Of a stretch of DNA of 52,001 nt, positions 17,182-19,515 are shown one piece after another; position 1 is the stretch's first letter, and each line of letters starts with the position of its first letter. The notes below the pieces were generated by a model. That model saw only the letters and a list, made by a program, of their open reading frames with translations. It did no database searches and had not been told where the DNA came from. Origin of the DNA: Chloroflexota bacterium (lineage in GTDB: Bacteria; Chloroflexota; Limnocylindria; Limnocylindrales; Limnocylindraceae). The stretch spans positions 1-52,001 of the forward strand of contig JAPLHQ010000018.1 in NCBI GenBank assembly GCA_026389555.1, written 5' to 3'. Both the position numbers and the translations under genes were made by a program.

Positions 17182-17937
17182 CTACGGGACAGTAATTCCC
17201 CACTTTGTCCCGAGCGCGCGAATCACACTCGTCCGTTCGGTTGCGGTAAGCGCACGATCCCAAATCACCACCTCAGAGAGGGAGGCGCGGAGATAGCGCA
17301 TTGCCGCTGATGAATAGATCACGCCAACATGCGTTGCGCTATCGCTGCTGCTGTAACTGAATGAGTACTCTGTTCCTCCATTAATAGAGGCGTAATCAGT
17401 ACCTGCACTATTCATGCGAATCATCAAGATCGCATTCGTGTTGATTGACCCAATGATTCCCGAGAGGATGCTCCCCCCTCCGTTAATTGCACGGAGCCGC
17501 TTTGCATCAACAACGAGCCCGGTTGCACGGTCCGTCTTGCCGAGAAGCGGGTGATATCCCGTGTCACTCCCCCCTCGCATGACGAAGAACGCGGTCATTG
17601 AGTTAAGCGGGATCGGCTGCGCAAGGGCGAGCCCGTTATCCTCAAAGATCAGTTGCGCCCTCCCTGAGACGGCCGTTGCGTACGGCGCCACACCAGATGT
17701 GAGGGCCGTGAGGTGCCGCGCCTCTCCCGACTTATCAAACCAGAAGCGCACGCGTGGCGCGAGACCAAGGGTTGCCGTCTCCGAGCTATCAACCCAGAGT
17801 CGCAGCCCGCTGCTGCTCACACTGCCGAGCGTTGGAATCGTCCCTCCGCTCATCGGAAGGCTCAGCAAAGCACTCCACTGCGCGGCCACGCTCGTCATCA
17901 AGATGAGCAAGGCGAGGACAATGTGCCGACCAGTCAC
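17182..17937 (-). CDS. secreted LamG/concanavalin-A-like lectin domain protein
   Basis: N-terminal signal-like segment IVLALLILMTSVAAQW. The C-terminal motif LSEVVIWDRALTATERTSV is typical of LamG_3 domains. The GTG start overlaps the upstream peptidase TGA stop (GTGA). Confidence 0.6.
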   Translation of the reverse strand: MTGRHIVLALLILMTSVAAQWSALLSLPMSGGTIPTLGSVSSSGLRLWVDSSETATLGLAPRVRFWFDKSGEARHLTALTSGVAPYATAVSGRAQLIFEDNGLALAQPIPLNSMTAFFVMRGGSDTGYHPLLGKTDRATGLVVDAKRLRAINGGGSILSGIIGSINTNAILMIRMNSAGTDYASINGGTEYSFSYSSSDSATHVGVIYSSAAMRYLRASLSEVVIWDRALTATERTSVIRALGTKWGITVP

Positions 17938-18788
17938 GTTGGTCCCCAGAGCAACGGCAGCGTGAGACTCCCCCCGGTTGCAGCGGGGACACCAAGAAGT
18001 GTCACCTTCACCTCGCAGCGAAGGCCGCTCCGGGCTGCCGCTGCGCTCTGCTCCGTTAAGAGTCCACTCGCCTGATCACTCCCGCTCCACTCCGCTGTGA
18101 ATCGGTCACTCGTCTGGGTCCATACGCCTCCGGTAAGTCCTTGACACCTCGTTGCGATACGCAGCGCGCGTGCGAGTGCCTGTGAGGCATCCCCAACGCT
18201 GCCCGTTGGCGGAAGGAGTGCCGCGAAGCCAACAGGATCTATGCGCAGCGCATATGTTGCCGCACAGCGTGAACCGCTTACGCCACATGCGGAAAGGGTG
18301 ATACTCCAGAGTGCGTAGCCGCCAGGAAGGAGCCTCCCTTGCGCATCTGCGCCGGAGATGGAGCGCGCACCCTGCTCCGCCACGACCCCCCCACTACTTT
18401 TCAGTGAGACGCTAACCGGCAGCGATGCGGTGAAGCTCGCCGCCGTGCGTATGGCACGGAACAGGTGGGATGTTGGGATGACGAGAGCGAGCTGGCCCAG
18501 TACGTCGCTACGCTGCACTGGTCGGCTGTCACCGCTGAGGCTCGCGTCGCCCTGCATCCAGAGTTGCTCACCGCTCATCGCCCGTAACCGATGAAGCAAG
18601 CGACGTTCACCATCACGAACTAGCAGGATGCTCCCAATGCGTAGTTGATCAGTTGGCGGACCGATCGTCACCACGCTGTCGCCTGCGCGAATGCTCGGCG
18701 CCATTGACTCTCCATCAACGATGGAGAGTCGCACGTTAAAGAGCGCGCAGGCAGCGCCGATCACGATGGCGACGAGCACGGTACGCAC
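17934..18788 (-). CDS. SipW-type (Ser/His, ER/archaeal-like) signal peptidase I fused to a ~180-aa C-terminal TasA-like domain
   Basis: N-terminal TM helix, then catalytic-Ser box VDGESMAPS, His box RLLHRL and MQGDASLSGDSRPV. The S26 core ends near residue 105. The remaining roughly 180 aa begin AASFTASLPVSVSL and contain a GAD...LPGG...SITLS block resembling the neighbouring gene. Confidence 0.7.
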   Translation of the reverse strand: MRTVLVAIVIGAACALFNVRLSIVDGESMAPSIRAGDSVVTIGPPTDQLRIGSILLVRDGERRLLHRLRAMSGEQLWMQGDASLSGDSRPVQRSDVLGQLALVIPTSHLFRAIRTAASFTASLPVSVSLKSSGGVVAEQGARSISGADAQGRLLPGGYALWSITLSACGVSGSRCAATYALRIDPVGFAALLPPTGSVGDASQALARALRIATRCQGLTGGVWTQTSDRFTAEWSGSDQASGLLTEQSAAAARSGLRCEVKVTLLGVPAATGGSLTLPLLWGPT

Positions 18789-18790
18789 CG

Positions 18791-19405
18791 CTACTGCGTG
18801 ACGTTGCGCGCCTCAAAGATCAGGGTGATCCCGGCGGAAGAGTCTGCCCCGTCCGTTGCGCTTGCTGGGAGGCTGATCGTGAACGTGTAGACGGCACGAG
18901 TGGCGTTGATCCCGGTGAGCGAGCCGCCGTTCTCCGATCGCCAGAGAGACCCGATCGGTGATGTGAAGGAGGCTGCCGCAGCGAGGCCCGCAAAGCTCCC
19001 TGAGTAGATAGTTTCTGGCGTCCTGCCACCAATTGACCGTGTGATCTGTACCTGCAGTGCCCCACCTAGCCCAGCGCTATTGAGCGGCGTTCCACTCGAA
19101 TCAGCCCGGAGCGCGATCTCCGTGTAGGCCGTTGGGAGTGTGACCGTTGACGCGTTGGTAACGGTGACGCTCTGGGTAAGCGTTGTCCCTGGGCCGATCG
19201 CTGAAAGGTCTGCGCCGCCGAAGGTGAGGCTACTCACATCGCCTGCGCTGAGCTCTACTCTTCCGCTCTCAAGCAGCGCATCGACCGGTTGTGTTGCGGT
19301 AAATGCGGCGCTGGTGCTGCTTATGGTTACTACAAGGGCAAGCACCGCTCCACACGCGGCGCCCGCGAGTCGCCAGTGCCTTAGGCCATCCACGCCTTTG
19401 CTCAT
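18791..19405 (-). CDS. TasA/camelysin-like secreted protein with SipW-cognate-type signal peptide
   Basis: Signal region RHWRLAGAACGAVLALVVTISSTSAAFTATQP (compare B. subtilis TasA GGGTWAAFND). ESGRVELSAGD compares with TasA ASGTLDLSAKE. Also an IGPGTTLTQSVTVTN block and a C-terminal ITLIFEARNV. GAGGAG Shine-Dalgarno motif 6 nt before the ATG. Confidence 0.62.
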   Translation of the reverse strand: MSKGVDGLRHWRLAGAACGAVLALVVTISSTSAAFTATQPVDALLESGRVELSAGDVSSLTFGGADLSAIGPGTTLTQSVTVTNASTVTLPTAYTEIALRADSSGTPLNSAGLGGALQVQITRSIGGRTPETIYSGSFAGLAAAASFTSPIGSLWRSENGGSLTGINATRAVYTFTISLPASATDGADSSAGITLIFEARNVTQ

Positions 19406-19515
19406 TCGTCACTCCTCTCGGCGAAGTGGCGGAGGTGAGGCGGCTCAGCATCCTCACATACGGCGGATATTGTGCGCGTACGCCCCACCCCCTCGCATCG
19501 GCTAGGATTCCGCGG

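Follow-up and report, generated by a model that had tools for sequence, protein, structure and literature searches.

We analysed a stretch of 52,001 nucleotides (nt), referred to here in its full length as the window, from a Chloroflexota bacterium of the class Limnocylindria (assembly GCA_026389555.1, contig JAPLHQ010000018.1, positions 1 to 52,001 of the forward strand). Three closely packed genes lie on its minus strand, at 19405–18791 (204 amino acids, aa), 18788–17934 (284 aa) and 17937–17182 (251 aa), and are called genes 1, 2 and 3. Gene 2, the main subject here, encodes an apparent SipW-type signal peptidase fused to a passenger domain that opens with a copy of the predicted cleavage site of the gene 1 product, a TasA-family protein. 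A Shine-Dalgarno-like GGAG lies upstream of the gene 1 ATG, gene 2 starts with GTG 2 nt past the gene 1 stop, and the gene 3 start overlaps the gene 2 stop as GTGA. Together, the genes probably encode the TasA-like subunit, the dedicated peptidase and a LamG-like protein of a TasA-type fibre system of freshwater Limnocylindria. Their features are as follows; a slash marks a predicted cut, TM stands for transmembrane, ER for endoplasmic reticulum and AF2 for AlphaFold2.

17934–18788, minus strand: gene 2, 284-aa peptidase-passenger fusion; full-length architecture kept in 103 sequences of 270–310 aa
18711–18788, minus strand: N-terminal membrane anchor of gene 2, residues 1–26, from a Kyte-Doolittle scan; AF2 helix at residues 2–16
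18474–18731, minus strand: ER/SipW-type peptidase core of gene 2, residues ~20–105, from a SEC11A/C profile match, Foldseek and invariant residues
18447–18473, minus strand: linker of gene 2, residues 106–114, variable and of low confidence; stands where SipW has its C-terminal TM helix
18414–18446, minus strand: internal motif copy TAASFTASLPV of gene 2, residues 115–125, predicted scissile bond A117/S118
17937–18437, minus strand: passenger of gene 2, residues 118–284, a lineage-specific nine-strand β-sandwich (predicted) with two probable disulfides (C168–C175, C215–C258)
18791–19405, minus strand: gene 1, 204-aa TasA-family protein, probable major fibre subunit
19283–19315, minus strand: motif TSAAFTATQPV of gene 1, residues 31–41, predicted cut A33/A34, Phe35 at P2′
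17182–17937, minus strand: gene 3, 251-aa secreted LamG/ConA-like protein, probable accessory or tip protein
17857–17889, minus strand: motif VAAQWSALLSL of gene 3, residues 17–27 (VAA/QWSALLSL), after the signal-peptide hydrophobic (h-) region, Trp at P2′

The fusion is a single, conserved gene

The original prediction, made from the window alone, had read the open reading frame (ORF) 17934–18788 as one 284-aa protein and had named a frameshift or a junction of two genes as the way in which it could fail. Comparison with related genomes bears out the single gene. Assemblies from ENA, JGI, NCBI and Logan yielded 118 homologues of the fusion, mostly 281–288 aa long and with identity down to ~40%, so that the same full-length architecture recurs in more than 100 Limnocylindria homologues. 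Conservation counts given below refer to the 103 full-length members of 270–310 aa for the fusion and to an alignment of 107 sequences for gene 1. The names of the homologues point to freshwater Limnocylindria (Ca. Limnocylindrus, Ca. Aquidulcis), and the exact sequence was found in several freshwater and lake metagenomes. Contigs assembled from independent runs match the window exactly or show substitutions and no indels. The three-gene synteny is kept at 40% identity and in most Limnocylindria loci of GTDB with long enough contigs.

Two longer sequences, P0066 (346 aa) and P0071 (445 aa), join a fragment of the fusion to a 3-oxoacyl-ACP reductase and an ABC permease domain, respectively; both lie on short contigs and are likely chimeras of gene calling or assembly. 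A metagenome-assembled genome (MAG) titled 'Thermoflexus hugenholtzii JAD2' (locus L017) also carries a fusion cassette of the typical Limnocylindria kind, and its label looks like a taxonomic mis-assignment at the level of the bin.

The peptidase core has an intact Ser-His-Asp active site and no C-terminal anchor

Similarity to peptidases is limited to residues ~2–118 of the 284. The family profile matches human SEC11A/C with an E-value of 4e-5, pairing GESMAP with SGSMEP, LHRL with VHRV and GDASLSGD with GDNNAVDD. The catalytic residues that these pairings indicate, Ser28 (GESMAP), His66 (LHRL) and Asp81/Asp87 (GDASLSGD), are each invariant in 103/103 members. There is no invariant Lys in the family, and His66 stands in its place as general base. 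The protein falls below the curated cut-offs of TIGR02228 (29.4 vs 51.85 bits), PF10502 (19.6 vs 22.9) and PF00717 (17.5 vs 23.3); some homologues of the fusion have precomputed PF10502/PF00717 matches. A Foldseek search with the AF2 model of the fusion returned the LexA C-domain (E 2e-4), SipA (4N31), SEC11A/C (7P2P/7P2Q) and SpsB, all with probability 1.00, and UmuD was also among the top fold matches. From these sequence comparisons, we assign the core to the ER/archaeal type of signal peptidase I (S26B; SipW, SEC11) as a divergent member. With its catalytic residues intact, it looks like an active Ser-His-Asp peptidase. Operon linkage, and the A-x-[FW]-[ST] sites shared by genes 1 and 3 after their h-regions, suggest that it cleaves the signal peptides of its operon partners.

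The core had been predicted to end around residue 105 (VLGQLALVIP). In agreement, tblastn matches of unfused relatives start at residue 3 and stop at residues 103–109; the closest of these relatives are SipW-like cores of Actinomycetota, with 30–43% identity over residues 3–109. The classical SipW of a Chloroflexia MAG (L032; 173 aa) has a TM helix after the equivalent 'IP'. The fusion has a single hydrophobic segment, residues 1–26 (Kyte-Doolittle), and thus departs from the SipW topology of N- and C-terminal TM anchors: the second TM is absent and the extension takes its place, as had been proposed. Beyond the TM, the core is without Cys.

A predicted cleavage-site motif is shared by all three products

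The flexible linker between core and extension differs in length and sequence between clades, by up to 16 extra residues, and the AF2 model has a predicted local distance difference test score (pLDDT) below 50 at residues 112–121. Immediately after it, residues 114–129 (nt 18402–18449), RTAASFTASLPVSVSL, echo gene 1 residues 31–45, TSAAFTATQPVDALL, with P124–V125 of the fusion corresponding to P40–V41 of gene 1. Pairwise BLASTP between the extension and gene 1 aligns this 17-aa motif only (E 0.027). In the six-frame translation of the window (104,000 residues), A[AS]FTA[ST] has exactly two matches, one in each of these adjacent genes. Placing the cut register as in TasA, whose mature N-terminus is A28–F29 (PMC9674648), puts the predicted scissile bond of the fusion between A117 (nt 18438–18440) and S118 (18435–18437), with F119 at P2′.

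The original prediction had described the extension as opening with a copy of its neighbour's A-[AS]-F-T-A-[ST] site. The copy holds up: it is conserved in both families, each with an aromatic residue at P2′. Across the fusion family it reads [AVT]-[AT]-[AT]-x-F-[TS]-A-x-x-P-V. F119 is present in 103/103 members; position 117 is Ala in 81, Thr in 21 and Gly in 1; position 115 is A/V/T, 120 is T/S, 121 is mostly A, 124 mostly P and 125 V/I/L. Position −2 varies freely (A/T/S/G/V/N/H), and in the most divergent clades, where it is N, H or G, −1 stays Ala and −3 stays V/A/T. Small residues kept at −1 and −3 around a free −2 are what one would expect if the site must still fit a signal peptidase. 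In the gene 1 family T31, A33, A34, F35 and T36 are present in 107/107 sequences and S32 in 105/107, and P40–V41 is nearly invariant.

A third copy of the motif, which had gone unmentioned, lies in gene 3 with Trp at P2′. In all gene 3 orthologues, [ST]-x-[AG]-A/x-W-[ST] comes after the h-region of the signal peptide, as in TSGA/AWSPRLDLP, TAGA/RWTAPVELP and ISGA/GWSNSASV. Since this copy is conserved in orthologues, the motif is common to all three products of the cassette.

The passenger is a lineage-specific domain

Downstream of the motif the AF2 model is confident, with pLDDT 77–94 over residues 121–284; the predicted template modelling score (pTM) of the whole model is 0.55. Four Cys residues in the extension had been noted as possible disulfide partners, and their pairwise conservation points to two probable disulfides. 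C215 and C258 are found in 103/103 members, and C168 and C175 occur together in 99 and are jointly lost in three (the P0109/P0110/P0113 clade). This pattern also argues for an extracytoplasmic location of the passenger.

At its N-terminus, the extension has the features of a TasA-type protein, namely a SipW-type site with an aromatic P2′ residue (F119; cf. TasA F29) followed by a donor-strand-like segment. Its further identity as a second TasA-like domain, a paralogue of its neighbour as first proposed, found no support in profile or database searches. Against eight TasA-like proteins of Actinomycetota and Chloroflexia, hhalign gave the extension profile an E-value of 0.47; gene 1, as control, aligned to TasA-like proteins of these groups with 97.1% probability over 172 columns (E 6.8e-11). 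By this measure, the passenger is not detectably TasA-like. TasA was also not in the top 50 Foldseek matches of the whole-fusion model, a list dominated by the peptidase domain. Direct profile comparison of the extension with gene 1 gave a local hhalign match of 50 columns (E 0.041), and the global alignment failed. With AF2 secondary structure added, the local match had an E-value of 0.028 vs 0.38 for a reversed control. A second sequence parallel that had been pointed out between the two proteins, GAD..LLPGG against GGAD..IGPG, does fall inside this sole profile-profile alignment, which is weak (50 columns, E 0.03–0.04). A greedy alignment is collinear over 137 columns, pairing both Trp residues and the LRID/LWAD strand, and is not significant; the nine predicted strands of the extension are roughly collinear with those of gene 1. 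With its status as a TasA paralogue unproven, 'substrate-like passenger' is the defensible description.

Other assignments fared no better. A sequence search of the PDB with the extension gave no match, and Pfam and NCBIfam returned only noise at E ≤ 10. Fold matches of the passenger in the whole-fusion Foldseek search were weak and generic (PsrP BR domain, FimA and carbohydrate-binding modules, E 0.005–0.03). The passenger showed no relationship to the LamG-like gene 3 product or to the LamG passengers of actinobacterial fusions described below (E 0.14), and no match to DUF5305, for which 0/21 members score at E ≤ 10 and no TM follows residue 26. In a profile search of 1.84 billion representative proteins, the passenger was seen only in the same fusion family and in P0241. 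In the latter, a 1689-aa repeat protein, eight stretches match the N-terminal half of the passenger profile with a summed E-value of 3e-15; the match is probably a repeat-summed artefact, since the repeats (…TITWEELDGTTEYVWHVGL…) are by eye unlike the passenger.

Gene 1 and gene 3 encode probable fibre partners

In addition to the profile match above, the best PDB fold matches of gene 1 are the TasA structures 5OF1/5OF2 (Foldseek E 7e-4); direct matches to NF046066/TIGR04088 (NCBIfam) are weak. Its signal peptide has a hydrophobic segment at residues 11–38. By both its profile and its predicted fold, the gene 1 protein is assigned as a genuine TasA-family member. Gene 3 has a weak Laminin_G_3 match at residues 189–234, and its C-terminal LamG signature aligns to actinobacterial LamG passengers with an E-value of 0.002. 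Among related loci with contigs long enough to show it, most keep gene 3 downstream of the fusion.

Peptidase-passenger fusions occur in other lineages

SipW-like cores that are related to the window's are also fused to passengers in Actinomycetota. There, ORFs of 455–683 aa run from the core through a second TM, a basic loop and a third hydrophobic segment to an A-x-F-[ST] site and a Laminin_G_3 domain (E 6e-16 to 6e-21), with examples in Cellulomonas, Curtobacterium, Frigoribacterium and Acidimicrobiales. These fusions were found at loci L028–L033, L041 and L042 (e.g. L029:3872–5239, L030:3929–5308 and L033:3923–5323). A camelysin/TasA-like gene adjoins the fusion gene, and the Curtobacterium fusion has well over a hundred homologues, including some in complete genomes of cultured strains. 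NCBI names these proteins just 'LamG-like jellyroll fold domain-containing protein', which is why their peptidase half has been overlooked. An enzyme fused to a cleavable substrate is thus a recurrent architecture. The idea that the Limnocylindria enzyme is linked to its own substrate gains from these fusions, and the part of it that made the passenger a paralogue of the neighbour is not supported. As judged from sequence, the window fusion and the actinobacterial SipW-like::LamG proteins share a related architecture and belong to different families.

A further case comes from the Chloroflexia MAG mentioned above. Beside a tasA-like/sipW/tasA-like/tasA-like cluster (L032:3309–5687), it encodes a second SipW paralogue of 490 aa (L032:5756–7228) in which the core is followed, with no TM between, by TGGWYVDAHEID, echoing the neighbour's TGAWFTSAREIN (BLASTP E 0.011), and by a Cys-rich extension of ~250 aa. 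We compared this extension with the passenger of the window and found the two unrelated; by its sequence, the 490-aa paralogue is an independent case of the same layout. Fusions of SipW-like cores in two other Actinomycetota MAGs have different tails: L037:3557–7738 (1393 aa) continues into repeated bacterial immunoglobulin-like domains after an 'ASGRFTAES' site, and L035:3797–4786 (329 aa) has a Pro-rich tail after 'SSAAFVAT'.

The cassette is a presence/absence polymorphism

The cassette lies between tdk/lysA-like genes and a pgl-opcA-zwf-gnd cluster. In two lake metagenomes we found contigs in which position 17182 is joined directly to 19474 through an 8-nt filler, ACAGAATC. The junction has a depth of 9.4 in X8 and 55.6 in X14, with a matching loose end in X10, and the cassette-bearing form is deeper than the cassette-less form within the same runs. 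The whole three-gene cassette (17182–19474) is thus a presence/absence polymorphism. Its precise absence from some lake contigs indicates that the cassette is dispensable and that the peptidase is dedicated to it and is not a housekeeping enzyme.

The downstream pgl-opcA-zwf-gnd context is constant between the window and relatives of 40% identity (L001), and the upstream synteny varies. In the relatives, the cassette comes straight after pstB and the phosphate ABC genes; the window and L003 have tdk and a diaminopimelate/ornithine decarboxylase gene interposed. No sortase was found among the genes examined around the cassette (12.7–24.3 kb), a promoter and terminator scan gave no signal above shuffled expectation, and RNA runs from the same lake samples gave no contigs on the cassette.

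Self-processing and its alternatives

LepB-type peptidases are inefficient on sites with an aromatic P2′ residue, and TasA, which has Phe there, depends on SipW (PMC10269814). The donor strand of TasA comprises residues 28–38, including F29 (PMC9674648), and the N-terminus of TapA mimics this strand and nucleates fibres (PMC9674648; PMC10151520). By analogy, the segment shared by all three products of the cassette could be at once a SipW-type cleavage site and the start of a donor strand, and its aromatic P2′ residue would make all three sites substrates of the SipW-type enzyme and not of a housekeeping LepB-type peptidase. Because the extra domain of the fusion begins with a copy of its neighbours' cut site, the enzyme probably either cuts itself or anchors the fibre.

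Of these two, we lean towards self-processing, a reading that we hold to be quite plausible if somewhat short of probable. Sequence and model predict one N-terminal membrane anchor and an extracytoplasmic passenger. In this layout, the tethered internal site would reach the active site, either that of its own chain or that of an adjacent molecule, and the A117–S118 bond would be cleaved. The cut would release a low-abundance accessory subunit, produced 1:1 with the enzyme. Its new N-terminus, SFTASLPVSVSL, could then enter the TasA-like subunit as its donor strand and thereby prime or cap polymerisation, in a role like that of TapA. The predicted tryptic peptide that spans the uncut site is TAASFTASLPVSVSLK, and the neo-N-terminal peptide after cleavage would be SFTASLPVSVSLK. 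Self-cleavage has a precedent in the same protease clan, in LexA and UmuD, both among the top fold matches of the fusion. As for its origin, the protein most likely descends from a peptidase-substrate fusion with a second TM and a full signal peptide, as in Actinomycetota; deletion of the TM hairpin from such a fusion preserves the topology and yields the layout of the window.

Several observations weigh against self-processing. Type I signal peptidases normally use a membrane-embedded h-region before the site, and none lies ahead of the internal site of the fusion. Thr, a poor fit to the −1 pocket, stands at −1 in ~20% of the family. The placement of the linker in the AF2 model is not confident (pLDDT <50, with a pTM of only 0.55). 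A donor-strand role is argued by analogy; the passenger is without profile similarity to TasA-like proteins, and its PDB fold matches are weak and generic. All sequences come from one class-level lineage, and conservation of the motif may partly be phylogenetic inertia.

The lack of an h-region and the Thr at −1 would fit an uncleaved fusion that serves as a membrane-tethered anchor or nucleator, in which the motif as membrane-proximal donor strand, or the passenger as acceptor, holds the first or last TasA-like subunit where subunits leave the membrane, and the peptidase doubles as the base of the fibre. The invariant F119 and P124–V125 are features of a donor strand rather than of a cleavage site, the fusion is never split across the whole lineage, and related loci of the TasA superfamily have genes for separate membrane anchors (AbpX preprint). 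We nonetheless think a permanent tether rather unlikely. Positions −1 and −3 remain small even as −2 and the linker change, and a complete, cleavable signal peptide is retained in the actinobacterial fusions, which speaks for release of their passenger. Steric hindrance may also affect a donor strand tied only ~12 residues away from the core. Improbable, in our judgement, is a role of the extension as a built-in accessory or substrate-handling domain like DUF5305 or SPC22/23, a β-sandwich accessory subunit of the eukaryotic signal peptidase complex. The motif, as a pseudo-substrate, would then fill or regulate the active site and would not belong to the fibre. This would agree with the dissimilarity of the passenger to TasA-like proteins and with its being found solely together with this peptidase; DUF5305, an extracellular β-sandwich, is reported to be fused to a type I signal peptidase (SPase I) in Anaerolinea thermophila and occurs in TasA-like loci. 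However, with the threshold relaxed to E 10, no member of the family matches DUF5305 or another Pfam family, and the fusion has neither the pair of TM helices nor the cytoplasmic module by which DUF5305 is defined. The AF2 model, confident within each domain, has no confident packed interface between them, as its pTM indicates, and the motif match to gene 1 extends past the cleavage positions (P at +7, V at +8, then G-A-D...P-G).

An artefact, whether faulty sequencing or assembly that merged two genes or a chance resemblance of the motif in an Ala/Ser/Thr-rich sequence, is scarcely credible. Long spurious ORFs are common in high-GC genomes and the pairwise match of the motif reaches just E 0.027, but frameshift, two-gene and chance-motif explanations are refuted by homologue lengths (118 homologues, 103 of 270–310 aa, across the ENA, JGI, NCBI and Logan assemblies), synteny, identical or indel-free contigs from independent runs, and conservation of the catalytic residues, the motif and the Cys pattern alike. 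The motif pattern, moreover, occurs just twice in 104,000 six-frame residues.

Taken more broadly, self-processing would mean that SipW-class peptidases can be enzyme-substrate polyproteins, with the Limnocylindria enzyme cutting a soluble, tethered site that has no membrane-embedded signal peptide and so making a fibre-priming donor strand 1:1 with itself. We put this forward as a tentative proposal that may or may not hold.

Implications

Donor-strand fibres of the TasA type have come to be seen as a means of building biofilm matrix that crosses domains of life. To our knowledge, their nucleation and anchoring are known only for Bacillus, via TapA. The parts of the Limnocylindria cassette are known, namely a TasA-type fibre, a SipW-type peptidase and donor-strand accessory proteins. 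Full-text literature searches found no description of a SipW-substrate fusion, and the covalent arrangement of enzyme and passenger without a signal-peptide h-region is new. If our proposal is correct, secretion and processing would be linked in a new way to the priming or anchoring of a fibre, and the fusion would be the first type I signal peptidase to process itself. The same logic would then explain the hundreds of unrecognised SipW::LamG fusions of cultured and genetically tractable Actinomycetota (Curtobacterium, Frigoribacterium). Recognising these as peptidase-signal peptide-LamG fusions corrects an annotation blind spot and offers an experimental entry point in cultured strains. The abundant, uncultured freshwater Limnocylindria, for their part, gain a predicted surface-fibre cassette that varies between strains.

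Comparison with known systems

Like tapA-sipW-tasA of Bacillus subtilis, the cassette is a small operon that combines a TasA-family subunit, a dedicated Ser-His-Asp peptidase of the SipW/SEC11 type and an accessory secreted protein, and its predicted cleavage sites resemble those of the SipW substrates TasA and TapA in having an aromatic P2′ residue right after an A-x-A-type site. B. subtilis SipW has ~190 aa, N- and C-terminal TM anchors and no passenger, whereas the window enzyme lacks the C-terminal TM and carries a 165-aa predicted β-sandwich instead. The accessory protein of the window is LamG-like and not TapA-like, and the host is a freshwater Chloroflexota bacterium.

The actinobacterial SipW-like::LamG proteins share with the window fusion a homologous core, a TasA/camelysin-like neighbour and a passenger that follows an A-x-F-[ST] motif in one ORF. 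They differ in retaining three hydrophobic segments, with the second TM, the basic cytoplasmic loop and the signal-peptide h-region all kept, where the hairpin is missing from the window protein. Their passenger is a clear Laminin_G_3 domain; that of the window is an unrelated orphan domain, and its LamG-like protein is encoded by a separate gene.

LexA, UmuD and lambda CI (S24, clan SF) have the same protease fold and set a precedent for cutting of the own chain in cis or in trans. These are cytoplasmic, RecA-stimulated proteins with a Ser-Lys dyad and an Ala-Gly site N-terminal to the catalytic domain, in contrast to the window enzyme, which is predicted to be membrane-anchored and extracytoplasmic, with a Ser-His-Asp active site and its candidate site C-terminal to the core. 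SipA/LepA of Streptococcus pyogenes (PDB 4N31), the third-ranked fold match, likewise combines a signal-peptidase fold with a fibre or pilus operon. It is needed for pilus polymerisation as a chaperone of sortase-mediated pili and is without catalytic residues; those of the window family are invariant.

E8MZY1 of Anaerolinea thermophila (SPase I-DUF5305; AbpX/Tafi loci) is also a Chloroflexota peptidase of a TasA-superfamily locus with an extra extracellular β-sandwich. The DUF5305 module consists of this β-sandwich, two TM helices and a cytoplasmic α/β domain (AbpX preprint). The window passenger, in contrast, has neither TM helices nor a cytoplasmic domain, has no Pfam match, and starts with a substrate-like motif.

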